The notes under the pieces: model-generated
The model's database searches: none
Seen by the model: the letters and a program-made list of their open reading frames with translations, nothing else
What the model was told of the DNA's origin: nothing
Origin: an uncultured Candidatus Saccharibacteria bacterium
GTDB lineage: Bacteria; Patescibacteriota; Minisyncoccia; Phycocordibacterales; DSPV01
DNA length: 64,000 nt
Assembly (NCBI GenBank): GCA_964574355.1
Contig: CAZNMD010000002.1
Coordinates: 16,595-80,594 of the forward strand
Direction: 5' to 3'
In this document: piece after piece, positions 2,960-29,595 of the stretch
How the letters are laid out: every line of letters begins with the position of its first letter
How positions within the stretch are numbered: the stretch's first letter is position 1
Position numbers and translations under genes: made by a program

Positions 2960-2982
2960 GTAGATTCTATAAATAAATTTCT

Positions 2983-3828: not shown

Positions 3829-3913
3829 AAATGTAATAGAGTTTGCTTAGTGCCCCCTTTTCCCTTACTATAGAGCCCTGGTAAGGATTTATTCTCATTT
3901 TATTTATATACAA

Positions 3914-4552: not shown

Positions 4553-4565
4553 TCTATACAATAAA

Positions 4566-4594
4566 AACCACTCCTCAAAGGGAGTGGTTTTTAT
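4566..4594 (+). terminator. rho-independent terminator after ndk
   Basis: CCACTCC-tcaaag-GGAGTGG followed by TTTTT. Confidence 0.7.
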
Positions 4595-4631
4595 ATGTTT
4601 CAATTGCGCACGTTTTTTCTAACACGACAAC

Positions 4632-4659
4632 TTGCATTGCTTTTTCTCAGGTCTATAAT
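4632..4659 (+). promoter_or_regulatory. near-consensus sigma70-type promoter
   Basis: TTGCAT, 16-nt spacer, TATAAT. Confidence 0.55.
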
Positions 4660-4666
4660 TCAAAGA

Positions 4667-4900
4667 GGATTGGTTGGCATTTTCCGACAAATATTTTTTC
4701 AGGGAGTTCGATATCATGTCGCTTTGCTGAGGGTCTTCTTAAGGGCGTATCGCGTATGTGCCTTTGAGTAGACCTTCAAAAGAGCTTACATTGGGAACAC
4801 CCACCTGGCGTCAAGCTAGGGGAATGCCAATCATCCTTCGAGAGCGTCTATTCTTCACTGAATAGGCGCTTTCCTTTTGTGATTAGTAGAGAACAAGCAA
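4667..4900 (+). ncRNA. candidate small RNA or structured 5' leader of unknown class
   Basis: ~230 nt with no plausible ORF downstream of the strong promoter; several hairpins, e.g. GGCATTCCCCTAGC region; 100 nt before the next CDS. Confidence 0.2.
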
Positions 4901-4994
4901 AATGAGAAAGTTCCTTTCTTGCGAGGCTCTCAGTTTCTTGGAGGCTTTGCTTCGGAAATCTTTATTTTTGTACAACCTGCTATAATTCTTCTAC

Positions 4995-5417
4995 ATGCGC
5001 TCACGTTCATTCTTTATTTTAATTTTTTTGTTTGCTGTTTTGTTGGCCACACTTCATTTTGTTGGTTCGCAATTCGAGTTTTATCTTGATTTGTGGTGGT
5101 TTGATATCATGATGCACACATTAGGAGGGGCAATTTCTGGAGGGTTTACACTTATTGTTGCTCGGTGGTTTCGTCCACTCTCGCCAGTTCTTGAGCGGGT
5201 GAGTGGTGCGTATAGTATTGCTATTTTTGGAGCTCTTCTCATTGGTATTTCTTGGGAATTATTTGAAAAATATTATGATCTTATTTATACCCAAAACTAT
5301 CTTTTTGATACGACAATTGATTTGATCATGGATGTTTTTGGGGCCGTTCTTATTGGTCGATATACATTACGTAAGGGTTTTGTAGGAAGAGGTGAATCAT
5401 GGAAAAAAATACGCTAG
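4995..5417 (+). CDS. small integral membrane protein
   Basis: 140 aa with 4 predicted transmembrane helices; overlaps the next gene by 19 nt. Confidence 0.55.
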   Translation: MRSRSFFILIFLFAVLLATLHFVGSQFEFYLDLWWFDIMMHTLGGAISGGFTLIVARWFRPLSPVLERVSGAYSIAIFGALLIGISWELFEKYYDLIYTQNYLFDTTIDLIMDVFGAVLIGRYTLRKGFVGRGESWKKIR

Positions 5418-6769
5418 TTGTGTGGGGTGGGGCAGGAACAGTGACCGGGGCCAATTTTCTTTTGAAGATTGCTGGTAAGCGGATTTTGATTGATTGTGGA
5501 TTGCAACAAGATGGAGCAAATCCAGACGCGGTTAATCATGGAGGTTTTCCTTATGAACCAAGTTCGATTGATTTTCTTTTTGTGACCCACGCTCACATGG
5601 ATCATATCGGCCGAGTGCCCAAATTGGTTAAAGAAGGATATAAAGGAAAAATTATTTCAACTGCCGAAACAAAGGCTCTGTCAACGCTTATGCTCGCTGA
5701 TGCGGCTCGTGTCTTTGCAGATCCACGTCATAAAGAAAAAGGTCCGCCTATGTACCTTTCTTCAGATGTTGATGTGGCATTTAACCAGTGGAACGTATTG
5801 GCATATCACGAAACGTTTCCAATTTCGCACGATCTTTCGGTTCGTTTTTTAGATGCTGGACATATTCTTGGTTCGGCAATGGTTGAATTTACATTTCGTG
5901 GTGAAAAAATGGTTTTCACCGGAGATCTTGGCAACTCTCCCTCTCCTCTTTTGCGCGATACGGAAGCCATAAAAGATGTTCGCTACTTGGTGATGGAAAG
6001 TGTGTATGGTGATAGAAATCACGAGGGGAGAGATGTTCGACAGGCAAAGCTTCACAGTGCAGTTGATGACATTATTGCTCGCAAAGGAACGCTGATTATC
6101 CCATCTTTTTCTTTAGAACGAACACAGGTTATTTTGTCGGAGTTAAATGAGTTGGTAGAGGCGGGCGTTGTAAAACCACTTCCTGTTTTTCTTGACTCGC
6201 CTCTTTCGATAAAAGTTACTGACATATATCGGCACATGCGCGACAACTGGAATGATCGAATGAAAGGACGTATTGCGTCTGGAGACGAACCTTTTGCGTT
6301 TCCTCGCTTGGCGTTTACTCCTACTCGTGACGACTCTCTTCACATTCTTGCTATTAAAGGGCCAAAAATTGTTATTGCTGGATCAGGTATGAGTAATGGC
6401 GGAAGAATTATTCGACATGAAAAGGCATATTTACCGGATAAGAGAAATATTTTATTACTTGTTGGATATCAGTCTCCAGGTACGCTTGGCCGAAAAATTG
6501 CTGATGGTGATAAGAATGTTGAAATTGAAGGTGACGTAATTCCTGTTCGGGCTGAGGTTCGTCAAGTTGAGGGATACTCATCTCATAAGGGATTGGATGA
6601 TTTAGTTGCATTCGTTGAAACATCTGCCGATACGCTTAAAAAAGTGTTCGTGGCGATGGGTGAACCAAAATCTTCTATGTTTCTTGCTCAACGCCTCCAT
6701 GATTATCTAGGGGTTGATGCGATGATGCCCGAAGTAGGGAAGGAATATATATTACAGTTTCCAGAATAA
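5399..6769 (+). CDS. MBL-fold metallo-hydrolase of the beta-CASP ribonuclease type (RNase J / CPSF-like)
   Basis: VTHAHMDHIG metal-binding motif; beta-CASP-like middle and C-terminal parts; 456 aa. Confidence 0.75.
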   Translation: MEKNTLVVWGGAGTVTGANFLLKIAGKRILIDCGLQQDGANPDAVNHGGFPYEPSSIDFLFVTHAHMDHIGRVPKLVKEGYKGKIISTAETKALSTLMLADAARVFADPRHKEKGPPMYLSSDVDVAFNQWNVLAYHETFPISHDLSVRFLDAGHILGSAMVEFTFRGEKMVFTGDLGNSPSPLLRDTEAIKDVRYLVMESVYGDRNHEGRDVRQAKLHSAVDDIIARKGTLIIPSFSLERTQVILSELNELVEAGVVKPLPVFLDSPLSIKVTDIYRHMRDNWNDRMKGRIASGDEPFAFPRLAFTPTRDDSLHILAIKGPKIVIAGSGMSNGGRIIRHEKAYLPDKRNILLLVGYQSPGTLGRKIADGDKNVEIEGDVIPVRAEVRQVEGYSSHKGLDDLVAFVETSADTLKKVFVAMGEPKSSMFLAQRLHDYLGVDAMMPEVGKEYILQFPE

Positions 6770-6817
6770 GAGAGCTCTACTGTGAACCACTTTTAATTCA
6801 GAAGAAAATAACAAACA

Positions 6818-6848
6818 AAAAACTGCCTCAAGGGCAGTTTTTTGTTTG
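6818..6848. terminator. bidirectional terminator between the ribonuclease gene and rplT
   Basis: AAAAAACTGCC-tcaa-GGGCAGTTTTTTG. Confidence 0.7.
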
Positions 6849-7190
6849 TTATTTTGCTTTTGCGACGATTCGGCCAAATATTTCTGGTCGGTTTTTTGCC
6901 ATCTCAGCCAAGACTTTGCGGTTTAATTCAATTTTCTGCTTTTTCAAAGCGCCAATGAATTTGCTGTATGAGAGTTCTGTGCCCAAAGCTGCGTTGATTG
7001 AGGTGTTCCATAGGCGGCGGAAGTCACCTTTTTTGTCGCGTCGATGAGCGAAGGCATAGGCACCTGCATGAGCAAGTGCTTCATATGCTGCACGTTCTTT
7101 CTTTGATCGAGCAAAACGAAAACCTTTCGCTTGTCGAAGGACGTTGCGACGAGTTTTGAGGGCATTAACTGCTTTCTTTACACGGGTCAT
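6849..7190 (-). CDS. rplT: 50S ribosomal protein L20
   Basis: MTRVKKAVNALKTRRNVLRQAKGFRFARSK...RRLWNTSINAA. Confidence 0.9.
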   Translation of the reverse strand: MTRVKKAVNALKTRRNVLRQAKGFRFARSKKERAAYEALAHAGAYAFAHRRDKKGDFRRLWNTSINAALGTELSYSKFIGALKKQKIELNRKVLAEMAKNRPEIFGRIVAKAK

Positions 7191-7219
7191 GTGAGTAAGT
7201 GAGTATTAAAGAGGATTAA

Positions 7220-7408
7220 TTAGGCGATACCAACGAGGAAGCGGCGTTTTTCACGATTTGTAAGCTTCATAGTGGTGGTTCGGCGCTTACTGTACTGTGA
7301 GCGGCGACCTTCTTTTGCGTTGAAATGGTTTTGTCCAGCAACACGTGTCGTGATTTTGCCATTCTTCGAAACTTTGAGTCGTTTTGCGTACGATTTATTT
7401 GTTTTCAT
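7220..7408 (-). CDS. rpmI: 50S ribosomal protein L35
   Basis: 62-aa basic protein MKTNKSYAKRLKVSKNGKI... lying between infC and rplT in the conserved operon order. Confidence 0.8.
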   Translation of the reverse strand: MKTNKSYAKRLKVSKNGKITTRVAGQNHFNAKEGRRSQYSKRRTTTMKLTNREKRRFLVGIA

Positions 7409-7427
7409 AAAGATGAGTAATTTATGT

Positions 7428-7934
7428 TTAGGCTTTTTCTATAATCGTTGAGATGTTTCTTGGTCCCTTTCTTGCTGGGTCTGCGATTTTAAAGGGAACA
7501 GTAAAAAGGTTAACGGCGCGATCGAGGCGGGCTTGTAAGAACTTCGGGTCAAGATATTTTTCTCGGCCTTTAAGGAAGAGATCTACCTTAATCCGGTGTC
7601 CTTCTGAAAGCCAGTCTGAAGCCTCTTTCATTTTTCGTGACAAATCATGGTCGCTTGTACCGATGGTGATTTGCACCTGTTTTATTTCAACAGTCTGTGT
7701 TTTTGCTTTGCTTTGCTTCTGTTTTTTGCTTTCGATGTACTGGTATTTGCCGAAATCCATGATCTTTGCGATCGGTGGAGTAGCATTTGGCGAAATCTCA
7801 ATAAGGTCAAGTCCTGCGTCTTGTGCGGCTCGCAAGGCGTCACCCAAAGAGAGTTCGCCTAGGTTTGTACCATCTGCTCCGATTACTCGAAGAAGTGGTG
7901 CTTTTATCTGATGATTAACCCGTGCTTTAGACAA
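7428..7934 (-). CDS. infC: translation initiation factor IF-3, TTG start
   Basis: INHQIKAPLLRVIGADGTNLGELSLGDALRAAQDAGLDLIEISPNATPPIAKIMDFGKYQY. The first codon is TTG, in keeping with the atypical infC start codons used for autoregulation. Confidence 0.85.
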   Translation of the reverse strand: MSKARVNHQIKAPLLRVIGADGTNLGELSLGDALRAAQDAGLDLIEISPNATPPIAKIMDFGKYQYIESKKQKQSKAKTQTVEIKQVQITIGTSDHDLSRKMKEASDWLSEGHRIKVDLFLKGREKYLDPKFLQARLDRAVNLFTVPFKIADPARKGPRNISTIIEKA

Positions 7935-8000
7935 GATCTAGTTCCTTTTTGTGATAGTAACGCGGAGTTATTTATAGCATATATAGTCTTTCGACGCAAC

Positions 8001-8043
8001 AAAAAGGGCGATAAGAAAAGGGCGGGTCAAAATGTACCCGCCC
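8001..8043 (-). terminator. rho-independent terminator of small ORF P1
   Basis: Minus strand: GGGCGGGT-acatttt-GACCCGCCC followed by TTTTCTTATCGCCCTTTTT. Confidence 0.6.
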
Positions 8044-8051
8044 GTTCCTTT

Positions 8052-8270
8052 TTAGGACCTTACGACCCGATACTGTTGTGCAAAATGTGCGGCTCCACCG
8101 CACAGGATGAAATGCATGATGCAGTCTGTATTAGTTGGTTCCCGGCCTAACTCAACTCCGGTAACCCAACGATTAAAAGGGTCGTGAATAGCTATGTCTG
8201 TTTGTAAACGTAGGTACTCTCTTAGGTTAACTTCTATGGGTGCGGGGGGTTCTGTGTTTTCGGTAGGCAC
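8052..8270 (-). CDS. small hypothetical protein P1 (72 aa), paralog of P2
   Basis: GTG start preceded by AGGAGG with a 6-nt spacer; own terminator; C-terminal ...CIMHFILCGGAAHFAQQ aligns with P2 ...LINHWMTAGGAEMFHQK. Confidence 0.5.
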   Translation of the reverse strand: MPTENTEPPAPIEVNLREYLRLQTDIAIHDPFNRWVTGVELGREPTNTDCIMHFILCGGAAHFAQQYRVVRS

Positions 8271-8340
8271 AGCGCACCTCCTTTCTTTCCATAGTGTATG
8301 CCTCTCTTTTCAAGAGTCAATCTCTATGGTGGATAAATGT

Positions 8341-8382
8341 ATTTTTTTTACAAAAAAACCGAACCAAAAAACGGATTCGGTT
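8341..8382 (-). terminator. terminator of small ORF P2
   Basis: Minus strand: CCGAA...TTCGG hairpin followed by TTTTTTTGTAAAAAAAA. Confidence 0.45.
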
Positions 8383-8396
8383 GTTCTGAATATGGG

Positions 8397-8609
8397 TCAG
8401 ATACATATCTCCCCAGAGCGTATTTTTTGATGAAACATTTCTGCTCCACCAGCTGTCATCCAATGGTTGATGAGTTCAATGTTGCTTACTTCGTGCGCTG
8501 GTTTTTGTAGTGCCCATGCGGTATTTCGTCGATGATCCTCGTCACTAAGAATTGTTCCTAGTTCTCTCTCGGCAAGTCGGTCTCCTGGCATTGAATATTG
8601 GTCACACAC
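8397..8609 (-). CDS. small hypothetical protein P2 (~70 aa from the GTG start), paralog of P1
   Basis: AGGAGG, 6 nt, then GTG, the same arrangement as P1. The ORF track's longer version (to 8699) lacks a ribosome-binding site. Sequence MCDQYSMPGDRLAERELGTILSDEDHRR...NHWMTAGGAEMFHQKIRSGEICI. Confidence 0.45.
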   Translation of the reverse strand: MCDQYSMPGDRLAERELGTILSDEDHRRNTAWALQKPAHEVSNIELINHWMTAGGAEMFHQKIRSGEICI

Positions 8610-8734
8610 AGAACCCCTCCTTGTTTTTGTCTTCTTATAGTGTACGCTTCTTGATTTTATACAACAAGCCACTTGTGAACTGTGGTACATAAATAACACC
8701 GCAGTCAGGATAACCCTGGTGCGGTGTGTTTGGC

Positions 8735-8977
8735 TTATGGATATTCGATCCAGCCATGTTGTCCTTTTGGGGTAAAGTTCACGGTTGCCTGTGGTTCTTC
8801 TGCAAAGCCGATAACATGAGTTCTTCCTCGAAATGTAATGGAGTTATTGGTCTCCATGTGAGAAGATTCGACGATAAAAAGGATTCTAACGTCTCCACTT
8901 CGAAACAGCAGTTTTTTCCTTTGGGGGTCGAACTTCTTTGGACCGCCCGTAAGGGGAAAGCGATCTGTTCGTCTCAT
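8735..8977 (-). CDS. small hypothetical protein P3 (80 aa)
   Basis: ATG preceded by AGGAG; unrelated in sequence to P1/P2; followed by a hairpin. Confidence 0.45.
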   Translation of the reverse strand: MRRTDRFPLTGGPKKFDPQRKKLLFRSGDVRILFIVESSHMETNNSITFRGRTHVIGFAEEPQATVNFTPKGQHGWIEYP

Positions 8978-9037
8978 AATCTCCTATAACCATACTCATC
9001 TTTTTTCTTTTGTCACGTGGTGAGTAAGGTTGTATGT

Positions 9038-9496
9038 TTATGAAAGATATTTTTTACTTGCCCAGTAATAGACGAGTACGCGTAAGGCAAATGCCGTCAT
9101 TTCAATGTATCCACTGAGGTTATAGGTATAAAACAAAAGACCATATATGCGGGCACACCCACTGACGATGAGTATATATAACGTAGAAAGCAGTAGTATT
9201 TCTTTTGGGTCAAATCCTTGATAGCTGTGCTTTATAACTCGTGTTGAGTAGAGAACCCCAAGGAAGGTGATAAGCGGATACACAAAAACAGTTACTATGT
9301 TTTTCCAGAAAAAATCTGCTTGTATAAATGTTGACCAAGTAAGGTCAAAGGCGAGCCCAAGAAGCATTGGGATCATAAAACCTGCCTGTAGCCAATGAAG
9401 CAGGGCAATTTTCCAGCTTTCTGTTTTTTTCTTAGCGTGCATGGGGTGGTGTATATGGTCTACCCGCCGCTTCTTCACGATGAACCATTTCTTCAT
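9038..9496 (-). CDS. integral membrane protein
   Basis: 152 aa, 4 predicted transmembrane helices, basic N-terminus; a 50-codon hydrophobic upstream ORF overlaps its start. Confidence 0.55.
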   Translation of the reverse strand: MKKWFIVKKRRVDHIHHPMHAKKKTESWKIALLHWLQAGFMIPMLLGLAFDLTWSTFIQADFFWKNIVTVFVYPLITFLGVLYSTRVIKHSYQGFDPKEILLLSTLYILIVSGCARIYGLLFYTYNLSGYIEMTAFALRVLVYYWASKKYLS

Positions 9497-9719
9497 AATT
9501 GTTCACAAAAATTCTATATCCTTCAGCAACAGCAATTTCAAAAATGAGTATTGAAAAAGCTATAATGAGTGTGATGCGGAGAGATTTGGTCATTTGTTTT
9601 TAGTAGTGTCCTTAATAGTACCATCGGTGAGCATCGCGTCTTTAGGTACCGTTTAAATAGTATATTGTTATAATGAAAAGGCGGGGAAAATAGTATATTA
9701 ATTATTTAACGTAACGTAT

Positions 9720-9968
9720 ATGGAAACTCCTTCAGGTGGTGACGAGACAATGAAAAAGCTTGAGTCAACGCTTGCGTTTGTTGGGCCATTGTCTCCAGAA
9801 CAAAAGGCCAGGGCTATAGAGGTTTGTGAAACTCCTCTTGAAAATACATGGGCAATTGTAAAGGCAGATGGAACGATTGAGTATCGTGTTTCAAATACAG
9901 AAGATGGTTCTGATGTGTTGGGAAGTGAAGTAGAAGCCGATGTTGTTGCAGCCGGGTTTCTTGGGTAA
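9720..9968 (+). CDS. small hypothetical protein (likely starts at the internal ATG, MKKLESTLAF...)
   Basis: ORF preceded by an extended -10 (TGtTATAAT) and GGTGGTGA; followed by a terminator. Confidence 0.4.
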   Translation: METPSGGDETMKKLESTLAFVGPLSPEQKARAIEVCETPLENTWAIVKADGTIEYRVSNTEDGSDVLGSEVEADVVAAGFLG

Positions 9969-9995
9969 GAGAACGCTCAAATAAATAAAGTATAT

Positions 9996-10028
9996 TAAAA
10001 ACACAACCAGGTACGGTTGTGTTTTTGT
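9996..10028. terminator. bidirectional terminator
   Basis: ACACAACC-aggtac-GGTTGTGT followed by TTTTGTGT. Confidence 0.65.
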
Positions 10029-10039
10029 GTGACGACAGA

Positions 10040-10486
10040 TTATGCTGCCATGTTGGTGTGAATCAACACTTCCTCTGGTTCCCAGTAGATGTCACCTCCT
10101 TCCTGATCAGAGGTGACAACATAGATGTGTCCCACTCCACCAATAGCTTCACGGGGACAGTAGAGTGCGTGAGGAACTCCGGCTGGTACGACGATCGCAC
10201 CTTGCTGTTGAGGGTTTCTGCTGACGATCTCCCCGTTCATTTCCATGAGAATGGTGACATCTCCCCATTGGTGGATGTACACCTTTTCTTTCTGAACGTG
10301 TTTATGGAAGGGTGTTGCCGAACCTGCCACCATACAGACCTTGCGTATGCCAAGTGTTCTTGATCGAGGACTTGCCTCGTCATCAGTTACCGCGATGGGT
10401 AGTAGGGTCCCATTTCCTGTGTATGGTTTGAAAATCCGTGTTCCTTTGGAAACGTGATTGAGAATGTTGGGTAAGATAATAGTCAC
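10040..10486 (-). CDS. cupin-domain protein
   Basis: HKHVQKEKVYIHQWGDVTIL ... VVPAGVPHAL, the two cupin motifs. Confidence 0.65.
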   Translation of the reverse strand: MTIILPNILNHVSKGTRIFKPYTGNGTLLPIAVTDDEASPRSRTLGIRKVCMVAGSATPFHKHVQKEKVYIHQWGDVTILMEMNGEIVSRNPQQQGAIVVPAGVPHALYCPREAIGGVGHIYVVTSDQEGGDIYWEPEEVLIHTNMAA

Positions 10487-10599
10487 AATGGCTCCTTAGA
10501 TGTTGAGGTTTGTGGTTTGGTACGTCTTCCGGGGAGAAAGCTATCAGAAAGGGAAGGTGGTGTCGAGGATGGAAGAGAGCTTAGGGGATGATGTTAAAA

Positions 10600-10640
10600 C
10601 TTTTTAAATAAAACCTGTCCACCGAAGTGGACAGGTTGGA
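10600..10640. terminator. bidirectional terminator
   Basis: AAAACCTGTCCAC-cgaa-GTGGACAGGTT. Confidence 0.6.
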
Positions 10641-10650
10641 GGACGAATCT

Positions 10651-10983
10651 CTAGGTTGCACGGACCGTTTGTTTTGCTTTTTCTTGATGTCTGCGGGCAA
10701 GCTTGTAGAAGGGGCAGTTATGGAACAAACCAGCAAGTTGTGCAAAGTCGTCCCGTCGCGTGAAATTCGCGCACTTGAAACAGTAGGTGTTTCTATTTGT
10801 GTGGCGAATGTGTCGGTGGCTTACATCGCTTGTTTCATGAATCCAATCGAATGTTCGACGAGAGCCGCATTTTGGACACTTACTTCCAAGCAGTCTCAAA
10901 AAATCAAAAAACAAGTAGAATACGCCGAGGATCAGAGCCAGAACGATTATGAAGGCCAAAATACCTAATATCTTGAGGAGCAT
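10651..10983 (-). CDS. membrane-anchored zinc-ribbon protein
   Basis: N-terminal transmembrane helix, then CPKCG ... CFKC cysteine pairs. Confidence 0.5.
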   Translation of the reverse strand: MLLKILGILAFIIVLALILGVFYLFFDFLRLLGSKCPKCGSRRTFDWIHETSDVSHRHIRHTNRNTYCFKCANFTRRDDFAQLAGLFHNCPFYKLARRHQEKAKQTVRAT

Positions 10984-11350
10984 GCGAATCCTTTTTGTTA
11001 AGGTTGTTTGGGAACAAAATTATCTGGTAAATATAATAACTTAATAAAAGTTATTTGTCAATATCATTTCGATTTTTCAACGTAAAACACGAAGGTGTTT
11101 TGTTCATTTTAACCATCAAAAAATCACCTTTTTTGGGCGATTTTGTTTTGATGCTGTGTGATGTCTATTCGTTTTATTTATAACAAAAAAATTTTAAATA
11201 AGTGGATAACTTAAAATTGTACGTAGTCCTATTTTAAAAAAGTGGGGCACTGTCATACAGGAGTACTCTTTTTGGTGAAGTATGTATTGAATATTTCGTG
11301 CCCGAATCTTTACAGTCATTATCCTTGCATGTTGTGTTGGTGTTATTTAT

Positions 11351-11380
11351 TTGACCAGTGAACGTTTGTTCACTTATACT
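11351..11380 (+). promoter_or_regulatory. LexA-repressed promoter: -35 TTGACC, SOS (Cheo-type) box GTGAACGTTTGTTCAC, -10 TATACT
   Basis: The GAAC-N4-GTTC palindrome sits exactly in the spacer between the -35 and -10 hexamers, directly upstream of lexA. Confidence 0.7.
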
Positions 11381-11386
11381 CTATGC

Positions 11387-11581
11387 ATGTCACAAGGCGA
11401 ACACACCATTGCTATTTCATACGAAATTGAGCGGCTCAATCAGATTATTGATAAGAAGATCATCAAGGGTGTTAATTACTGTGCCGAAGCAAAAAAGCAT
11501 CGTGAACTTTTGCGACTGTTGAAGCGAGACAAGAGTCAGTTTAGTTTAAGCAAAGTGTTTTCGTTTATAGGTATCTTCTAA
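11387..11581 (+). CDS. small ORF (64 aa) that is first in the LexA-controlled transcript
   Basis: Follows the SOS promoter directly with no Shine-Dalgarno sequence (possibly leaderless); helical, Lys/Leu-rich; ends 1 nt before lexA. Confidence 0.3.
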   Translation: MSQGEHTIAISYEIERLNQIIDKKIIKGVNYCAEAKKHRELLRLLKRDKSQFSLSKVFSFIGIF

Positions 11582-11582
11582 T

Positions 11583-12149
11583 ATGCATAACGAATACCAA
11601 GATAAAATTGTTTCTTTTTTCAGACGCAATAAGCGCCTGCCTTCATATCGTGAAGTGATGAAATTACTTGGATTCAAATCGACTAATGCCGTGCACAAGT
11701 TGATGAACAAACTCGTGGACGCTGGTGTGCTTAATCGTGATTCAAGTGGAAAGTTAGCACCTAGTAACATTTTTGGAGAGGTCGCTCTCTTGGGGTCGGT
11801 AAAAGCAGGATTTCCATCACCGGCCGAAGAAGAATTGCAGGATACGATGAGCCTCGATGATTTTTTGATTGAGAAAAAAGAATCAACCTATATGCTGACG
11901 GTAGATGGAGATTCCATGATAGATGCTCATATAGCAGAAGGGGACATGGTTTTGGTTGAACGGACTAATAAAGCGAAAGATGGAGAAATTGTTATTGCCG
12001 AAGTAGATGGAGAGTTTACGATGAAGTATTTCAGGCAGTTAGGTAACAAAGTATGGCTTGAACCGGCAAACAAGAAATATAAACCTATTTACCCGACCGA
12101 AAGTTTAAATATCACTGCCAAAGTCAAAGCAGTTATACGAAAGATTTAA
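11583..12149 (+). CDS. lexA: LexA repressor (winged helix-turn-helix plus S24 peptidase)
   Basis: N-terminal YREVMKLLGFKSTNAVHKLMNKLVDAGVL; C-terminal GDSMIDAHIAEGDMVLVE ... GEIVIAEVDGEFTMKY. Confidence 0.85.
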   Translation: MHNEYQDKIVSFFRRNKRLPSYREVMKLLGFKSTNAVHKLMNKLVDAGVLNRDSSGKLAPSNIFGEVALLGSVKAGFPSPAEEELQDTMSLDDFLIEKKESTYMLTVDGDSMIDAHIAEGDMVLVERTNKAKDGEIVIAEVDGEFTMKYFRQLGNKVWLEPANKKYKPIYPTESLNITAKVKAVIRKI

Positions 12150-12158
12150 GTGAGGTCT

Positions 12159-13466
12159 ATGAAACCATTATCTTTGCGCTCTTTCCCGAGGGCCATACTT
12201 CATATTGATGGTGATTGTTTTTTTGCATCATGTGAAGTTGCTCGCAACCCATCTCTAAAAGGTAAACCCGTCATTACTGGGCGAGAGCGTGGGATCGCTT
12301 CTTCCATGACGTATGAGGCGAAAGCACGAGGAGTAAAACGGGGGATGCAACTTTCCGAAATCAAAAAGATTTGTCCGGACGCTATTATTCTTCCTTCCGA
12401 TTATGAGAGCTATAGTCTGTATTCCAAGCGAATGTTTGAGATAGTGAGACGCTATACTCCTGATGTTGATGAGTACAGCATTGATGAATGTTTTGCTGAC
12501 CTGACTGGTCTTAAGAGGTCTCTTCGGATGTCGTACGAGCAAATGGCTGAGCGTATTAAGTCGGATCTTGATTTGGAATTAGGTATGACTTTTTCAGTTG
12601 GGCTTTCGGTAAACAAGGTCACCGCAAAAATCGCGTCTAAATGGAAAAAGCCTTCAGGCCTAACTATTATTCCCGCTTACAATCTTCACCTCTATCTTGA
12701 AAAGCTTCCCATCGAGAAGATATGGGGTATCGGTCCGAACACAACTGCTTACTTAAATAAATTTGGTATCAGGACTGCACTTCAGTTTGCTGAAAAGAAA
12801 AAAGAGTGGGTGAAGGAGAAAGTTACGAAACCTCATCAAGATATTTGGGAGGAGTTGCGTGGCGGTTTTGTTTATAAGCTAGAGACCGAAGAAAAGCACG
12901 ACTACAAATCTATCGGGAAAACACGAACGTTTACGCCTCCGTCGAAAGACAGGGAATTTGTATTTTCGGAGTTGTCCAAAAATATTGAAAATGCTTGTAT
13001 CAAGTTACGCAGACACGGATTGTATACCAAAGAAATTGTTTTCTTTTTAAAGAGACAGGATTTTAGTCATGCGGGGCTTGAATTGAAACTTTCTGTCCAT
13101 GCTTGTATCCCACAAGCTATTTTGGAAGTGGTCGAGAAACATTTTGATGAGGTGTATGTTCCTAATACCTTATATCGTGCAACTGGCATTGTCTTGATGA
13201 AACTGTCTGCTTCAAATTTAGGGACGATGGATTTGTTTGGAAATTATACTGAAGTTGAGAAGATGACTCGTGTATATGGTTCGGTAGACGAGGTTTCTAG
13301 AAAGTATGGAAAGCATACGTTATTTTTAGGATCAAGTTTTATTGCAATGAAAAACCATCAACACGAAGGAGAGCGGGGAGTTACTGCGGAAAGAAAAAAG
13401 CCTCTCTTGGTGGGAGAGACGGATCGAAAGCATTTAAGGGTGCCTCTGTTAGGGAAGGTTAGGTAG
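12159..13466 (+). CDS. dinB: Y-family DNA polymerase (DinB/UmuC-like, Pol IV)
   Basis: ILHIDGDCFFASCEV ... SIDECFADLTG ... GIGPNT; start overlaps the lexA stop. Confidence 0.8.
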   Translation: MKPLSLRSFPRAILHIDGDCFFASCEVARNPSLKGKPVITGRERGIASSMTYEAKARGVKRGMQLSEIKKICPDAIILPSDYESYSLYSKRMFEIVRRYTPDVDEYSIDECFADLTGLKRSLRMSYEQMAERIKSDLDLELGMTFSVGLSVNKVTAKIASKWKKPSGLTIIPAYNLHLYLEKLPIEKIWGIGPNTTAYLNKFGIRTALQFAEKKKEWVKEKVTKPHQDIWEELRGGFVYKLETEEKHDYKSIGKTRTFTPPSKDREFVFSELSKNIENACIKLRRHGLYTKEIVFFLKRQDFSHAGLELKLSVHACIPQAILEVVEKHFDEVYVPNTLYRATGIVLMKLSASNLGTMDLFGNYTEVEKMTRVYGSVDEVSRKYGKHTLFLGSSFIAMKNHQHEGERGVTAERKKPLLVGETDRKHLRVPLLGKVR

Positions 13467-13799: not shown

Positions 13800-15245
13800 C
13801 TAGGTTTTATGAGAATCTACGTATTTTGCAGTAGGAACCAGGTACTTTGCAGTGCGAAGGAGTTGGCTTATTTCGGTTTTATAGTTGGGAAAGTAGCTCA
13901 GGGCAACAAGGAAGTAACGTGAAATTTTTTCATCATCAGCATAGGAACTCAGAAACTTACTTTTTATTGAGGCTTTTAGTCCTGGGCTTCCAAATTTACC
14001 CACTAGAATGAAATAGTACCCAATCAACATAAAATTATTGGAGTGATATATTTTTTCTTTATCTATCTCGCTGACATGGGAGTGCAGTTTTTTAGCCTTG
14101 GTTAGAGTACGAAGGATAAGTATCTTTTGATAGACGTAGGAACTATCGTCTAATACAGTAGTCAAAAGCGATTGCACCCTTTTTTTATCTATGAAAACCT
14201 CCAGGTACGAAGTTATTGTGCTAGAAAAAGAGGGGTCGAGTAGTTTCTTTTTAAGAATGGAAGCTAGTGGGATTTCAGATTTTATTTCTTTGAATCTGTT
14301 TATGCAAAAATTCACTAAAGTCTTGTCTAACCCTTTGTTTGCTACAGTCCAAAGCCTTTTGAGTTGAGCGAGTGTGTATTTGTTAGTAGCGTCTAGTTTA
14401 AGGCCGTATTGTATACCTTCCATCTCTTCCGAAAATTGATTTGCAGGGGTTAGGTAGCTCTCAGCACTAAGGACGTGCGTTTTACCAGCGGCCAAATGCA
14501 AATTTAATGGACGCATAAGCTCTGTGAGTTTGGCAATTGCTCTACGGATCTCTTTTTCTTCAAGCGCAAAAACACGGATATCGTCCATGAATCTGTAATA
14601 TGTAAATTTCTCATTTATCATCATCTCGTCTATCTCGTGTAAGTAGACATTTCCTAGAAAGGAAGAAGGGTCAGACCCTTGGGGAATACCTATGCCACTC
14701 GCGTGCCAAGTATTCAATAAGTATCCAAGCTTTGATGTAACGTCCTTTGACACGTTTAGTTGATTTAGAATATCAAGTAATTTTTTTATTTGAATGTGTT
14801 CAAAGTAGGCGCTTATATCTGTCTTTAGTAAAAAACCACTGGGGTGTTTATTAAAAAGTTTCTCTGTTTTTGCATGAAATCTCCTCCAAGCTTCTACGCC
14901 ATTTTCGAAGAAATATTTCTCACTTTTAGTCACTCTGTGAGAGAAAACTATTTCTCGATTCAGTAATGAGGTATCAACTGTCTTGGCGAATTTATTTGTT
15001 AAGAGTTGGTAGTAAACTCGATCAGTGAGACGCATGAAGTGTCCTGGGCGTAAAATGAGACTTGCTTTTGGAATATCTAGAACAATTACTGAACCTGGGG
15101 CAGGAGAATTGTAATTGACTGAGATCAATGACGCAGGGTCATCAAGATAGTCGGCGTAGTCAAATACATCAGGCCAAAAATCATTCTTTATGTCCTGTTT
15201 CAGATACTTTATTGCTGTCCCGATGGCTTTTTTGCTGAATCGCAT
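13800..15245 (-). CDS. reverse transcriptase, standalone, bacterial defence/retron/Abi-like class
   Basis: RT motifs: IPKASLILRPGHFMRLTDRVYYQLL (motifs 1/2), LLKTDISAYFEHI (A), GIPQGSDPSSFLGNVYLHEID (B'), YYRFMDDIRVF (C, unusual FMDD), LHLAAGKTHVL (D/E). Followed by a ~190-aa helical C-terminal domain. No maturase/endonuclease domain and no adjacent effector gene. Confidence 0.85.
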   Translation of the reverse strand: MRFSKKAIGTAIKYLKQDIKNDFWPDVFDYADYLDDPASLISVNYNSPAPGSVIVLDIPKASLILRPGHFMRLTDRVYYQLLTNKFAKTVDTSLLNREIVFSHRVTKSEKYFFENGVEAWRRFHAKTEKLFNKHPSGFLLKTDISAYFEHIQIKKLLDILNQLNVSKDVTSKLGYLLNTWHASGIGIPQGSDPSSFLGNVYLHEIDEMMINEKFTYYRFMDDIRVFALEEKEIRRAIAKLTELMRPLNLHLAAGKTHVLSAESYLTPANQFSEEMEGIQYGLKLDATNKYTLAQLKRLWTVANKGLDKTLVNFCINRFKEIKSEIPLASILKKKLLDPSFSSTITSYLEVFIDKKRVQSLLTTVLDDSSYVYQKILILRTLTKAKKLHSHVSEIDKEKIYHSNNFMLIGYYFILVGKFGSPGLKASIKSKFLSSYADDEKISRYFLVALSYFPNYKTEISQLLRTAKYLVPTAKYVDSHKT

Positions 15246-15510
15246 TGCAGGTAGATTCTGCCGATTAATTTTGGTTTTGGCAACTCTAAAGAGCTAGGAC
15301 ATGCAATTAGTTAAGGTGCTTATAGCAGAGATAGGAGATAGGGCGTGTCCGATTAAATCGTAAAAAGAGTGTTGTAATTTTGTCGCTTCGCATCATGTTC
15401 GGAGTGGGGAACCGCGGAGGACCGCTTTCGGTCACGGATAATCATTCGCCGTCGCGAATGATTTCCTCGACCCCGGCTCGTCTGTTTTTTCTACTGAAAA
15501 AACATGACTC
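15246..15510 (-). ncRNA. candidate structured ncRNA or leader associated with the RT (upstream, same strand)
   Basis: 265 nt with no credible ORF and multiple perfect hairpins: TCATTCGC-gacg-GCGAATGA, TGTTTTTT-cagtag-AAAAAACA, GACCG-cttt-CGGTC. Confidence 0.3.
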
Positions 15511-15514
15511 CGCC

Positions 15515-15566
15515 TTTCGATTCCCCCACGCAAAGCGCGCAGGTGCTTTGCTCATCTCCACCAAAG
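15515..15566 (+). repeat. inverted partial copy of the tmRNA 3' end (T-loop 3' half plus acceptor 3' strand), interrupted by a 25-nt hairpin
   Basis: TTCGATTCCCCC[ACGCAAAGCGCGCAGGTGCTTTGCT]CATCTCCACCA on the + strand, versus the tmRNA 3' end GGGGGTTCGATTCCCCCCATCTCCACCA on the - strand. Confidence 0.7.
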
Positions 15567-15599
15567 AAAAATCGCTCACCTTTCGGCGAGCGGATTTTT
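15567..15599 (-). terminator. rho-independent terminator of ssrA
   Basis: Minus strand: AAAAATCCGCTCGCC-gaaa-GGTGAGCGATTTTTCTTT directly after the CCA end. Confidence 0.7.
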
Positions 15600-15603
15600 C
15601 AAC

Positions 15604-15988
15604 TGGTGGAGATGGGGGGAATCGAACCCCCGTGCAAGATGAAAATCTAGGCGGGTCTACGGCACGTAGTCTGCTTTGTTTACGAGAGTGAAGATAGAAA
15701 GCGGACAAAAGTCTTCATTCTCGGTGTTTCTTTATTTAAAACAATAGCCGAAACGATCTACTGTTCGAACTTGGGATATATCGCCCGCTTTCCTCGTCCA
15801 AGTGCCGAAGAAAGAGACGTCACGTAGGACTAACCGAAGTTAGGCGAACGCGAGAGCAAAACCGTACGGAGACGGAATTGCCTTGGTCACAGAGCTGTTG
15901 CCAGGTGTGTTTTGAAGCGGTTTAACGAGTCACTTCATCTCGGTGCCGCGCGCAAAGAGTGTGCATCCTGTCGATGCCGATCATCCCC
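15604..15988 (-). ncRNA. ssrA: tmRNA (SsrA), standard one-piece form
   Basis: 5' end GGGGATGATCGGCATCGACAGGATGC resembles E. coli GGGGCTGATTCTGGATTCGACGGGAT. 3' tRNA-like end GGGGGTTCGATTCCCCCCATCTCCACCA. Candidate tag frame ...AIPSPYGFALAFA followed by TAA. Confidence 0.85.
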
Positions 15989-15995
15989 GTGGCGT

Positions 15996-16442
15996 TTATT
16001 CTCCTTTCAATGTTCTTTGAATGTCGCGTTCTGATTCTCGTTTTTTTATCGAGTCGCGTTTATCAAATTCTTTTTTGCCTCGCGCAATCGCAATACGAAT
16101 CTTCATGCGACGTCCTTTACTATACACTGAAATTGGCACTATTGTCAAACCTTTCTTGGCTTCAAAACCTGCAAGACGTGAAAGTTCTTCTTTGTTCAAG
16201 AGAAGTTTTCGTGGCCTTTTTTCATCGTAGGCTTCTTTAATGTTTTTTGGTTGAAGTGGAATGCAGGTGGCTCCCATTAGAAACGCTTCGCCTCCACGAA
16301 TAGTGATATATGAACCATCAAGAGAGAGACGGCCCGCGCGAATCGATTTCACCTCAAAACCAAGCAACTCAATACCCGCTTCGAACTCTTCAAGAAATTC
16401 GAAATTAAAGTGGGCTTTTTTATTGTCGGACAAAGTAGTCAT
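15996..16442 (-). CDS. smpB: SsrA-binding protein SmpB (likely starts at the internal Met, MTTLSDNKKAHF...)
   Basis: NKKAHFNFEFLEEFEAGIELLGFEVKSIRAG ... GEAFLMGA ... KLLLNKEELSRL ... KGLTIVPISVY ... ARGKKEFDKRD. Lies 8 nt upstream of ssrA. Confidence 0.85.
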   Translation of the reverse strand: MTTLSDNKKAHFNFEFLEEFEAGIELLGFEVKSIRAGRLSLDGSYITIRGGEAFLMGATCIPLQPKNIKEAYDEKRPRKLLLNKEELSRLAGFEAKKGLTIVPISVYSKGRRMKIRIAIARGKKEFDKRDSIKKRESERDIQRTLKGE

Positions 16443-16574
16443 GCGGCAATCATACCGTGCATACTTCGTATTGAAAACACAGAGGAGAGAGATCTTTCCA
16501 ATATAAAAAAGGTATGGTACTTTCATGGTGGGTGAAGGGCTCTTTAAACAAAAACCTCAATAGGAGACTTTTAT

Positions 16575-19646: not shown

Positions 19647-19720
19647 CCACCCTTAGCTCAGTTGGTTAGAGCACCGAGCTTATACCTCGGGGGTCCTTGG
19701 TTCGAATCCAAGAGGGTGGA
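19647..19720 (+). tRNA. tRNA-Ile with anticodon TAT (UAU)
   Basis: Acceptor CCACCCT/AGGGTGG, D-arm TAGCTCAGTTGGTTAGAGCA, anticodon stem CCGAG/CTCGG with loop CTTATAC, T-arm CTTGG-TTCGAAT-CCAAG. CCA is not encoded. Confidence 0.7.
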
Positions 19721-19780
19721 CATTCATTCGTCTGTTGATAGAACCCTCTTTGGTTCGAACCTGTGAAAGGGTTCGTTGTG

Positions 19781-25129: not shown

Positions 25130-26086
25130 ATGACCACACAGCAGGTTATTAAGGATATACAAAAGAATTTTGATATAAATTCGATTTTTGCTCATAGAAC
25201 TTTTTTACTTGCTGATAAACGAAACCTCCTTGAAGATATTGCTCGAATCATCTCTGAAAGACCAAAACCATTTGTGAAGTGGGTGGGTGGTAAAAGGCAG
25301 CTTCTTGCCCAATTTCGAAAATTAAATTTATATCCACCAGAATTATTTAATATAAAAACGGGAAGATATTTTGAGCCGTTTGTAGGAGGAGGTGCTGTAT
25401 TTTTTGATTTACTCCCCGAGAAGGGGTTTTTGTCTGATTTAAATAAGGAGCTTGTTACGACATACAATGTTATAAAAAAAGATGTTGCTCGTCTTGTTGA
25501 GTCACTTAGGAAACACAAAGTTAATAAAGAGTATTTTTTAAAAATTCGAGCACAAGATCCATATACGCTAAGTGACTTAGACGTTGCTTCACGTTTTATA
25601 TTTCTCAACAGAACTTGTTTTAATGGGATGTATCGAGTGAACAGTAAGGGTGGATTCAATGTGCCGTATGGTAAGTATGAGAATCCTTTAATTTGTGACG
25701 AAGAAAATCTAATTAAAGTTTCAAAAGCACTTCAAGGAATTGAAATAAAGCATCAGGATTATAAAGAAGTTCTAAAGAAGGCTAAAAAAGGGGATTTTGT
25801 TTATTTCGATCCTCCCTACTATCCAGTAAGTAAAACGGCGTCGTTTACGTCGTATACGGCAGAATCATTTCTTGATAAAGAGCAGGTAGAGCTTCGGGAC
25901 ACCTTTTTGGAATTAAGTAAGCGTGGATGTTTTGTAATGCTTTCAAATTCAGATACACCCTTTATAAATGAGATTTATAAAGGTCATAAGGGGGTATGTA
26001 TTAATAAAGTTGAAGCTGGCCGAGCAATTAATTCAAAAGGGACAGGAAGGGGGAAAATTACTGAAGTGCTTGTAACTAATTATTAA
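25130..26086 (+). CDS. Dam-family N6-adenine DNA methyltransferase (alpha class); probable GATC methyltransferase M1
   Basis: KWVGGKRQLL (motif X/I region), FVGGGAVFFDL, DPPYY motif IV; first gene of the operon that contains a DpnII-like endonuclease. Confidence 0.8.
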   Translation: MTTQQVIKDIQKNFDINSIFAHRTFLLADKRNLLEDIARIISERPKPFVKWVGGKRQLLAQFRKLNLYPPELFNIKTGRYFEPFVGGGAVFFDLLPEKGFLSDLNKELVTTYNVIKKDVARLVESLRKHKVNKEYFLKIRAQDPYTLSDLDVASRFIFLNRTCFNGMYRVNSKGGFNVPYGKYENPLICDEENLIKVSKALQGIEIKHQDYKEVLKKAKKGDFVYFDPPYYPVSKTASFTSYTAESFLDKEQVELRDTFLELSKRGCFVMLSNSDTPFINEIYKGHKGVCINKVEAGRAINSKGTGRGKITEVLVTNY

Positions 26087-26091
26087 AAAAA

Positions 26092-28640: not shown

Positions 28641-28646
28641 CAACCC

Positions 28647-29408: not shown

Positions 29409-29544
29409 ATTTAGTTTAGTTTAAAATAAGGTACTACAATTTAAAAAGAGGGTAGGGACCGCGAGTACGCTTTTCGACCCTTACAGGGTCAGTACCCGTT
29501 TCCGATTTGTTCAGTATCAGAATACTTCACAAATAACGGAGAAC

Positions 29545-29595
29545 GGCTTCGAATCCCACCACGCGACTGAAGCAGTTCAGTCGCTCTCTCCGCAT
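29545..29595 (+). repeat. inverted partial copy of the tRNA-Ser 3' end, interrupted by a 24-nt hairpin
   Basis: GGCTTCGAATCCCACC[ACGCGACTGAAGCAGTTCAGTCGC]TCTCTCCGCAT, versus the reverse complement of the tRNA-Ser 3' end GGGTTCGAATCCCACCCTCTCCGCA. Confidence 0.7.

Follow-up and report, generated by a model that had tools for sequence, protein, structure and literature searches.

We analysed a 64,000-nucleotide stretch from an uncultured Candidatus Saccharibacteria bacterium (contig CAZNMD010000002.1; the whole stretch is called the window below, position 1 being its first letter) and found that three of its eight tRNA and tmRNA (transfer-messenger RNA) genes, namely ssrA, tRNA-Ser and tRNA-Met, are each followed by a self-contained unit of ~150-210 bp without any open reading frame (ORF), which carries the complement of the 3' end of the gene it stands behind. 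With a probability of about 0.5 we regard these units as non-autonomous insertion elements specific for tRNA genes (tDNA), whose specificity would lie in their own 11-12-nt complement of the insertion site, extended by a second complementary segment, and which would depend on an unlinked factor. The family is real and non-random, is widespread in ultra-small bacteria of the Candidate Phyla Radiation (CPR, Patescibacteria) and is apparently undescribed.

Read on the tRNA-sense strand, a unit begins behind the tRNA 3' end (X1) with a hairpin or terminator, followed by X'acc (the complement of the acceptor 3' strand and the first trailer bases), a one-base linker, a hairpin termed P0, the dinucleotide GT, a segment termed X'T, ~90 nt of further hairpins, and finally X2, a direct repeat of the tRNA 3' end. 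In the three loci of the window P0 has a stem of 7-9 bp with a CUGC loop, and X'T comprises 11-13 nt complementary to T54-N65. The parts of the ssrA unit, which copies the final 23 nt of the tmRNA from the T-loop to CCA, are as follows.

15604-15988, minus strand: ssrA (tmRNA); Rfam RF00023, 113 bits, E 2e-43.
15566-15600: terminator-like hairpin with T-runs on either side, predicted on both strands (bidirectional); centre of the palindrome.
15552-15563, minus strand: X'acc, TGGTGGAGATGA, reverse complement of the tmRNA acceptor 3' strand and CCA (11/11).
15530-15551 (22 nt), minus strand: P0 hairpin, GCAAAGCAC-CTGC-GCGCTTTGC, with linkers A and GT on its sides.
15516-15527, minus strand: X'T (the putative guide), GGGGGAATCGAA, reverse complement of tmRNA T54-N65 (12/12 inverted repeat).
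15430-15515, minus strand: structured core of type A, made of P1 (3 bp), GGA, the P2 hairpin, GAG, P1' and a long hairpin P3 (GGUCG...CGUGACC).
15412-15429, minus strand: extra small hairpin.
15401-15411, minus strand: X2, TTCCCCACTCC, a degenerate direct repeat of the tmRNA 3' end, pairing with X' in the predicted fold.
15382-15394, minus strand: mini-hairpin GATGCGAAGCGAC (GCGAAGC), resembling the native ssrA trailers of two comparison loci (L002 and L003).

A preliminary description of this locus had reported an inverted copy of the tmRNA 3' end, split by a hairpin and forming a ~110-nt imperfect palindrome around the terminator, and all of this was borne out. On the plus strand past the ssrA terminator the sequence reads TTCGATTCCCCC-AC-GCAAAGCGCGCAGGTGCTTTGC-T-CATCTCCACCA, where 15516-15527 (TTCGATTCCCCC) is the 12/12 reverse complement of 15615-15626 in the T-loop and T-stem, and 15553-15563 (CATCTCCACCA) is the 11/11 reverse complement of 15604-15614, the acceptor strand with CCA. 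Between the two pieces stand AC (15528-29), the 22-nt P0 hairpin GCAAAGC-GCGCAGGT-GCTTTGC (15530-15551) and a single T, and the palindrome, with the terminator-like hairpin at its centre, measures 111 nt (15516-15626). The hairpin had been called ACGC-initiated; the hairpin itself stood, while ACGC proved to be the 2-nt linker AC together with the first two hairpin bases. The palindrome makes up no more than one third, the one next to the tRNA, of a larger folded and conserved unit. The description was right that the site is no ordinary attL/attR scar and wrong that it lacks a direct repeat, since a repeat of the tRNA 3' end follows 100-150 nt further on, and the unit therefore has the hallmark of an insertion into tDNA. 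The mini-hairpin at 15382-15394 marks the displaced original 3' flank of ssrA, and therefore the reverse transcriptase (RT) gene next door lies outside the unit. Mini-hairpins of this kind (GCGAAGC or GCGTAGC, with GNA triloops) were frequent in CPR tRNA and tmRNA trailers and at the hairpin tips of units, always on the tRNA-sense strand (window 15382-15394; e.g. L002, L003, L085, L089 and L152); GNA-triloop mini-hairpins are especially stable in DNA. As a separate observation, ARAGORN does not call the ssrA gene at 15604-15988 despite its 113-bit Rfam score; CPR tmRNA annotation by ARAGORN alone may be incomplete.

The same layout recurs at tRNA-Ser(gct), as the preliminary description had pointed out, and also at tRNA-Met, a third case that it had missed. 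The tRNA-Met unit, ~200 bp without cargo (51307-51514, minus strand), is the cleanest example in the window.

51515-51586, minus strand: tRNA-Met(cat).
51474-51508, minus strand: the unit's own hairpin/terminator.
51461-51468, minus strand: X'acc, TTGCGTGA.
51436-51457, minus strand: P0, GCGAGCAAACTGCTTTGCTCGC, identical to the P0 of locus L004, then GT.
51422-51433, minus strand: X'T, TGGGAATTGCAA.
51325-51421, minus strand: core of type A; match of covariance model R1 at 51325-51457, 125.6 bits.
51307-51321, minus strand: X2, CCCGGCCCCGCAACA, a perfect 15-nt direct repeat (= 51514-51528) of the tRNA-Met 3' end.
51269-51298, minus strand: native tRNA-Met terminator, displaced by the insert; a convergent gene ends at 51265.

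We consider this unit a clean cargo-free insert because the perfect X2 is followed by the native terminator and a convergent chromosomal gene. The tRNA-Ser unit is more degenerate at its far end.

29633-29722, minus strand: tRNA-Ser(gct).
29596-29627, minus strand: terminator hairpin of the unit.
29585-29594, minus strand: X'acc.
29563-29584, minus strand: P0, GCGACTGAA-CTGC-TTCAGTCGC, then GT.
29548-29560, minus strand: X'T, GGTGGGATTCGAA, an exact 13-nt inverted copy of 29641-29653.
29447-29547, minus strand: core of type C (GGGTACTG-hairpin-CGAAAAGCGTACTCGCGG) and X2.
29447-29458, minus strand: X2, TCCCTACCCTCT, a partial (degenerate) direct repeat.

The type C core was found also in L004, L096 and L116. 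The covariance model R1 gave 94.4 bits at the ssrA unit (15430-15551) and a weak match at the tRNA-Ser unit (29491-29584, 23.5 bits, E 7e-5), and the covariance model of the unit matched exactly three places in the 64 kb, these being ssrA, tRNA-Ser and tRNA-Met. Each exact inverted 11-12-mer is unique in the window except for the gene itself.

The preliminary description had proposed looking for the arrangement in related genomes, uniqueness to this locus being what would point to a one-off rearrangement. Our search of related genomes and metagenome contigs found it in more than 100 unrelated contigs, and this recurrence, together with that in CPR genomes and the uniqueness of the 11-12-mers, ruled out chance or a one-off rearrangement. 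The gene smpB (15996-16526, minus strand) lies directly upstream of ssrA, and its product matched best a protein of a Candidatus Saccharibacteria metagenome-assembled genome (65% identity); by SmpB homology the organism belongs to the Patescibacteria. We compared twelve CPR smpB-ssrA loci (L001-L010, L013 and L030). Three of them carried a unit behind ssrA as in the window (L004, L008 and L009, the last with two units in tandem), and L006 carried a degenerate unit with a perfect 19-nt repeat. The ssrA site was empty, with a plain terminator, in L003, L005, L007, L010, L013 and L030, and L013 had a unit behind a tRNA; the sequence of L002 ends 48 nt past ssrA, so it cannot be judged. In L001, the closest relative, the ssrA terminator is followed at ~3440-3465 by a contiguous inverted copy of the tmRNA 3' end, CAGATGGGGGGAAATAGAACC, with neither P0 nor core, which may be the remnant of a unit since lost or else a precursor.

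Metagenome contigs were scanned with the 21-nt P0 core of the tRNA-Met unit, AGCAAACTGCTTTGCTNNCGT, which gave a sample biased to this one P0 motif and whose CPR origin was deduced from the labelled genomes (L004, L006, L008, L009 and L013). The motif occurred in at least 120 contigs. Among the matches listed, to which all counts in this paragraph refer, 86 of 132 occurrences stood 12-75 nt behind a tRNA or tmRNA gene of the same orientation, and the targets comprised 27 anticodons plus tmRNA. The 11 nt after the GT were the reverse complement of the T-loop/T-stem of the unit's own tRNA in 72 of 74 testable cases (728/781 positions), and the 12 nt before P0 matched the acceptor strand of that tRNA in 61 of 74 (630/732 positions), so that the segments flanking P0 matched the local tRNA at 86-93%. 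In 42 units a direct repeat of at least 16 nt (at most 2 mismatches, mostly exact) lay 120-300 nt downstream, and about 10 of 70 units had no terminator between the tRNA and the unit. The P0 motif had no match in viral contigs, in the phage database or in the plasmid database. With Rfam 15 only the tmRNA and the tRNAs passed the gathering thresholds and no family covered the unit, Rfam scans of the ssrA and tRNA-Ser units at a permissive E<=10 gave only spurious sub-threshold matches to the terminator, and full-text literature searches found no description of such units.

The interior of the units is folded and evolves as a fold. Nineteen type A interiors were aligned, a consensus structure was derived with RNAalifold and the covariance model R1 was built from it. 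The consensus consists of P0, an unpaired GU with the guide, P1 (3 bp)-GGA-P2-GAG-P1' and the long P3 (GGUCG…CGUGACC), with compensatory changes in 21 of 31 pairs among the 19 sequences and one pair present in all four Watson-Crick types. In 100 metagenomic loci the model returned 105 matches, some of them to units without the exact P0 motif; among 48 loci it matched only those that come from CPR bacteria or are akin to them (L004, L006, L009, L013 and the metagenomic L201), and in 30 mostly proteobacterial smpB loci it had no match. In an alignment of 101 distinct sequences fitted to the covariance model, 94.9% of cells pair as against 69.5% in shuffles (reached in 0 of 500), pairing falls to 32-44% when partners are slid by 1-3 columns, and double changes were seen in 31 of 31 pairs. 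Family-wide, P0 has a 9-bp stem that is 99.3% paired, a CUGC loop and compensatory changes at all 9 pairs. The type A alignment held 133 G.U pairs against 43 A.C pairs, a count to be read with some bias toward the sense strand, on which the alignment was built; this excess and the purine-rich GGA/GAG internal loop argue that it is the tRNA-sense strand which folds, as RNA or as single-stranded DNA (ssDNA). In sense-strand folds X' pairs with X2 around the inner hairpins (z = -6.07 for ssrA and -4.68 for tRNA-Ser). Cores of types B and C have P0 and the guide in common with type A and differ beyond them.

The junctions connect this fold to the target. In type A the unit brings a replacement copy of the 3' part of the tRNA, from C56 of the T-loop on, and the tRNA gene remains intact because the unit supplies this replacement. 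In these units the direct repeat begins at C56 and X'T extends two bases leftward (T54 and T55). Where the tRNA (X1) and the repeat (X2) differ, the complement agrees with the tRNA (146 positions vs 6). Two arrangements were found. In the first, the 11-12-nt segment is complementary to T54-N65; in the second (L083, L097, L118, L124, L130, L149 and L177), P0 follows the terminator directly and an 11-nt segment matches the last tRNA bases (the acceptor end) and the trailer, and the sequence common to both junctions, ~5 nt (GACAA, GCACA, CACAA, CAGTTAG), is centred in the guide's target. Both can be brought into one view: a fixed 11-12-nt segment beside P0 is complementary to 2-3 nt of the target's left flank, to a ~5-nt crossover core and to the bases with which the element side begins. 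If the crossover core is the T-loop, the element must also carry tRNA positions 61-76, which gives the long direct repeat. P0 then falls at the boundary of T-stem and acceptor because T54 + 12 = position 66. The preliminary description had placed the hairpin exactly at this boundary, which is correct at ssrA and fails as a general rule, P0 adjoining the terminator in the second arrangement.

The units also turn over. The orthologous tRNA-Met site was filled in L210 (neighbouring protein 71% identical; covariance model 76.6 bits) and empty in L211 (neighbouring protein 52% identical), where tRNA, terminator and convergent gene follow within 40 nt. In a comparison of the tRNA-Met units of the window and L210, the left half (terminator, X'acc, P0 and guide) was ~90% identical, P1 showed a compensatory swap, P3 was of a different subtype and the flank behind the repeat had diverged. 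Cores ~80% identical stood at different tRNAs with unrelated guides (tRNA-Lys in L175 and tRNA-Ile in L180; likewise tRNA-Glu in L124 and tRNA-Thr in L191), and identical tmRNA ends were followed by different cores, of type A in the window and of type C in L008. Tandem units occurred in L009, L123, L176 and L130. In the L130 array (4051-4725) a 136-nt unit (P0 + guide + type A core) is repeated five times in full and a sixth time in part, with AGTTA at the joints; the mobile part may have been amplified by a rolling circle or by slippage. Thus the filled and empty sites, the swapped cores and the tandems show a modular family, with a constant scaffold and a target-specific arm, which is patchy and turning over.

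We propose that a unit would act as a single strand of tRNA-sense polarity, in the simplest case as RNA produced by read-through from the tRNA promoter and alternatively as ssDNA. P0 and the core would be the constant scaffold for a factor encoded elsewhere, and the 11-12-nt segment would be the guide that picks the tDNA site by Watson-Crick pairing across the ~5-nt crossover core. The complement may be presented beside P0 on the folded strand while the unlinked factor does the chemistry, and the displaced original tRNA 3' end would remain behind as the direct repeat X2. When a scaffold turns up at a new tRNA, the 3' part it carries and the complement would have to be matched anew; our best guess for this step is recombination between units at the conserved P0/P1, which the mosaic relation of the window and L210 units suggests. 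We infer the guide function, RNA as the active molecule, a trans-acting recombinase or nuclease and present mobility.

Several points weigh against the insertion-element proposal. The enzyme is a postulated one, and mobility is deduced from repeats and patchiness only. To reach a new target, a unit would have to change both the tRNA 3' part that it carries and the complement of that part in concert. Mismatches between the complement and the tRNA, counted over both halves, showed no wobble bias (36 G.T vs 26 A.C), and therefore this pairing could be kept at the level of duplex DNA. The ~90% identity of the left half, set against 71% for the flanking protein, could speak for a host-level function rather than selfish spread. 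The sense-strand bias of the alignment, mentioned above, also bears on the strand assignment.

We tentatively entertain, with less than even confidence, a stronger form of this proposal, in which the units supply the RNA (or ssDNA) component of a nucleic-acid-guided system for recombination or insertion in Patescibacteria, so far undescribed, guide-only and categorically new. Here P0 with P1-P3 would be a scaffold recruiting an unlinked enzyme, the internal guide would program insertion at the T-loop or 3' end of a matching tRNA, and the element would use the tRNA promoter parasitically for its own expression, restoring the gene that it entered. If true, this would be a reprogrammable 'guide-only' mobile element free of protein genes, and the third natural case of base pairing choosing a DNA insertion site, after CRISPR-associated transposons (CASTs) and IS110 bridge RNAs. 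CPR bacteria have genomes under 1 Mb with almost no recognised transposons; their tRNA genes would harbour abundant, previously unannotated structured elements of 150-210 nt, each with the complement of its own site. The covariance model combined with phylogenetic profiling offers a concrete handle for finding the missing enzyme. The units also account for the puzzling palindromes and pieces of tRNA ends in CPR genomes by which island finders and tRNA/tmRNA annotation are misled. Even the most conservative reading, a resident RNA linked to tRNA genes, leaves a widespread new RNA family with excellent covariation support.

That conservative reading, which we judge unlikely while giving it real weight, holds that the units are structured 3' extensions of tRNA and tmRNA transcription units, kept by the host and not mobile today, whose complementary arm and tRNA-like 3' end would serve termination or 3' processing, or would sense or sequester the 3' half of the tRNA. 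It would account for the position of the units, always on the tRNA-sense strand and directly behind the gene, and for the units without an intervening terminator, where co-transcription is likely. Strong covariation with a G.U bias is typical of functional RNA, the closed fold gives an acceptor-stem-like end, the neighbourhoods are of housekeeping type without a recombinase, and the left half was conserved between the window and L210 while the flanks diverged. It does not account for the direct repeats of the tRNA 3' end flanking the unit and the displaced native terminator, for the presence of units at only three of the window's eight tRNA/tmRNA genes, for the empty orthologous sites in relatives, for different core types at one target (window and L008) or for tandem copies up to the L130 array. 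The tmRNA G3.U70 pair, moreover, has become A-U in the inverted copy, which is a perfect Watson-Crick complement, so aminoacylation mimicry is not preserved; a tRNA-minihelix mimic for aminoacylation was rejected for this reason, A3-U70 replacing the G.U identity pair of the tmRNA.

It is distinctly unlikely, in our estimate, that the units are instead folded ssDNA attachment sites resembling integron attC or the attP(+) of CTX phage, that is, palindromes with a bulged P0 whose folded strand a structure-specific recombinase, possibly host-encoded, would join to duplex tDNA, replication resolving the product. The imperfect palindrome (60-110 nt), its extra-helical element in a constant position and the preference for one strand fit such sites, as do the non-coding 'cassettes', sometimes in arrays, with a short core common to both junctions. 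The sense strand is rich in GNA-triloop mini-hairpins (GCGAAGC, GCGTAGC). Uptake of ssDNA occurs in CPR bacteria and is plausible in this organism, whose window holds a type IV pilus cluster (33550-43045). Set against this, nearest-ORF scans showed no IntI-like or other linked recombinase. The crossover cores vary by target (CGAAT-type T-loops, GACAA, GCACA, CAGTTAG), which makes an Xer-like enzyme with sequence specificity unlikely. Nothing in attC or CTX sites corresponds to the conserved core of 80-100 nt beyond the palindrome, whose GGA/GAG loop looks RNA-like.

That the units are ordinary integrase islets seems quite improbable. They would then be attP-only remnants (P' and P arms) of tyrosine- or serine-integrase islands, left by internal deletion or mobilised in trans like cis-mobilizable elements (CIMEs), with the inverted copy as a binding site for integrase or IHF. 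A regenerated tRNA with a displaced 3' fragment from the T-loop on is indeed the classical signature of tDNA integration as defined for Islander (PMC4383910), the unit is near a full attP in size, and real islands use the same sites (RT/UmuDC/T4CP at ssrA, DpnII/GmrSD at tRNA-Ser, and an RT island in L201). Integrases, however, are site-specific, whereas one P0/core serves 27 tRNA targets among the matches listed; the interior evolves by compensatory changes, unlike protein-binding duplex arms; the inverted copy lies at least 40 nt from its partner, too far for core-type sites; and no integrase gene was enriched near the units in the 25 commonest families of 142 ORFs.

For the RT gene beside the ssrA unit, the preliminary description had proposed testing whether the RT uses this site.

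13800-15245, minus strand: reverse transcriptase, 481 aa; best match to the PADLOC UG32/UG21 'DRT' profiles, not to intron maturases.

The idea that the unit is the non-coding RNA (ncRNA) or the primer-binding site of this UG32-like RT is hardly credible and largely refuted. In its favour, RT and unit share a strand, with the unit immediately upstream, the complement resembles a tRNA primer-binding site, and in L201 a tmRNA-type unit stands less than 200 nt from an RT that is 72% identical; there, however, the unit sits downstream of the RT, between two tmRNA-end fragments. The pairing in L201 is as expected if island and unit independently use the tmRNA end. No RT stands at tRNA-Ser, at tRNA-Met or at ~100 other unit loci, and five other RT homologues (P0004, P0008, P0012, P0018 and P0020) lie without a unit among type I restriction-modification, Fic and HEPN genes or beside large serine recombinases. 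Further, the tRNA-Ser complement matches the gene (GCAT) and not the mature CCA end, and the RT itself, matching defence RT models best, is probably a defence gene; an RT-linked ncRNA or primer-binding site was rejected.

Two further candidates were rejected. If each insertion made its inverted copy by fold-back or template switching, the repeat should run through the whole left arm to the loop. This was seen in L082 and L089 and failed at the window tRNA-Met, L081, L085, L090 and L094, where the unit's terminator differs from the native one behind the repeat; such an origin was rejected as a general mechanism. A group I intron in the T-loop is contradicted by the missing Rfam match, the absence of U.G and of a terminal G, and a tRNA that is complete upstream of the unit.

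We also examined the genes around the units. BLAST clustering of ORFs up to 5 kb downstream gave no family in more than 5 loci, and the recurrent downstream ORFs were syntenic housekeeping genes (YraN-like, RuvX-like and RF2, identified from sequence). In a Pfam analysis of the 142 nearest ORFs MiaA, EF-Tu/G and the CCA-adding enzyme were commonest, and no integrase, transposase, recombinase or nuclease-guide family was among the 25 commonest. No integrase was seen among the scanned ORFs of the window. No sigma-70-like promoter was found inside the window's units, a promoter scan being weak evidence in CPR bacteria. Other features noticed in the window are the following.

122-13466: region beyond the RT, 3' of ssrA, resembling an integrative and conjugative element; several ORFs without Pfam or PADLOC match.
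122-2959: VirD4/TraG-type coupling protein (T4CP, type IV coupling protein).
5399-6769: beta-CASP/MBL (metallo-beta-lactamase) nuclease.
11583-12149: LexA/UmuD-like S24 peptidase.
12150-13466: UmuC/ImpB Y-family polymerase.
19647-19721: tRNA-Ile, anticodon TAT (UAU), with no unit behind it.
25130-29408: low-GC restriction island (29-37% vs ~42%) with a D12 methylase, GmrSD, DpnII endonuclease and a second methylase, abutting the tRNA-Ser unit.
33550-43045: complete type IV pilus/competence-type cluster with PilM, PilB, PilT, PilC and prepilin peptidase.

The anticodon UAU of tRNA-Ile is uncommon in bacteria. No far-end direct repeat that would place the RT island or the DpnII island inside a unit was found in the window at up to 3 mismatches, and the far end of the DpnII/GmrSD island showed no tRNA-Ser-derived repeat in the window. 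A short inverted T-loop-like piece, AGGATTGAATTT (10/12), lies at 55055-55066 between two tRNA-Thr genes without P0; it may be due to chance, TTCGAA-type T-loops being self-complementary, or may be a relic. Two copies of GGTGACCGGGTTCCrTGACCGGT by the tRNA-Asn of L206 (2655-2700 and 2840-2885), beside an island with an RT and a large serine recombinase, are possibly the att sites of that island.

Among known systems, tDNA islands (Islander/TIGER; the CIMEs of Streptococcus) come nearest in appearance. Like them the units enter a tRNA or tmRNA gene at its T-loop or 3' end, bring a replacement 3' part, keep the displaced fragment as a direct repeat and may occupy one site in tandem; the repeat was 15/15 at tRNA-Met and degenerate at ssrA and tRNA-Ser. 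Unlike them, the units measure 150-210 bp, have neither integrase nor cargo and carry the inverted complement of their own target, and one conserved, covarying interior serves at least 27 tRNA targets in place of one att site per element. Integron attC and CTX attP(+) sites share a similar-length imperfect palindrome, extra-helical features, strand asymmetry and non-autonomous cassettes, and in CTX attP(+) one arm likewise mimics the target duplex; the units differ in having no integron platform, Xer-type site or R/L box consensus, in their extra conserved core and in a target that varies from unit to unit. The attC core sites (RYYYAAC / GTTRRRY) were not found at unit junctions, which showed CGAAT-type T-loops, GACAA, GCACA or CAGTTAG instead.

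Group I introns are also small structured RNAs at tRNA genes of the same phylum (PMC13011429), and a T-loop junction and a guide across the left junction like P1 add to the likeness. The surveyed tRNA introns of Patescibacteria are anticodon-loop group I introns only (PMC13011429), and a T-loop intron is known from clostridial tmRNA (cited in PMC13011429). The units, by contrast, follow a complete tRNA, lack the junction U.G and the terminal G and are too small for a P3-P9 core, and RF00028 (Intron_gpI) gave no match at E<=10 in the ssrA and tRNA-Ser units. Nor was there an Rfam match to a group II intron, for which a unit of at most 210 nt compares with a domain V/six-domain structure of at least 600 nt plus an intron-encoded protein.

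Guide-carrying elements resemble the units in how they would work. Among IS605 elements, non-autonomous derivatives keep only the RNA (omega-RNA-only PATEs, palindrome-associated transposable elements). The omega-RNAs of TnpB and IscB and the homing guides of type V-K CASTs offer a hairpin beside a short guide matching a tRNA gene (bioRxiv 10.1101/2021.02.06.429022); type V-K CASTs use truncated repeat-spacer homing guides against tRNA genes, and the element lies just downstream of the targeted gene (bioRxiv 10.1101/2021.02.06.429022). In the units, unlike these, the guide is internal, has structure on both sides and is carried as a copy instead of being read from the flank; and while a V-K CAST inserts ~60 bp from its protospacer, the unit junction lies inside the target of the guide. 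Genes for TnpA, TnpB or IscB were found neither in the scanned ORFs of the window nor in the 25 commonest neighbour families, those for Cas12k, TnsB, TnsC or TniQ were absent from the scanned window ORFs, and the HEARO and IS605-orfB Rfam families had no match in the window units.

The bridge RNA or seekRNA of IS110/IS1111 elements (PMC11208160, PMC11208158) offers a further functional likeness: a structured ncRNA of ~150-200 nt, encoded within the element, with segments complementary to the insertion site, a constant scaffold, a short core common to donor and target, and a modular, reprogrammable target segment. In the units, correspondingly, the 11-12-nt complement spans the junction core and the scaffold covaries. 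There are also differences. IS110/IS1111 RNAs have two bipartite loops reading opposite strands of target and donor (PMC11208160, PMC11208158), whereas the units have one contiguous same-strand complement, split or bordered by P0, and no second programmable loop; the core is 2 nt there and ~5 nt in the units, which also carry a long target copy; and no DEDD or serine recombinase gene stands in or near the units in the ORFs scanned. A recombinase of the DEDD (RuvC-like)/Tnp family was likewise absent from the scanned ORFs of the window and from the 25 commonest neighbour families, a result compatible with a single copy elsewhere in the genomes. Taken together, our comparison suggests that the units work most like guide-carrying mobile elements and look most like miniature tDNA islands, and that they are members of none of these systems.

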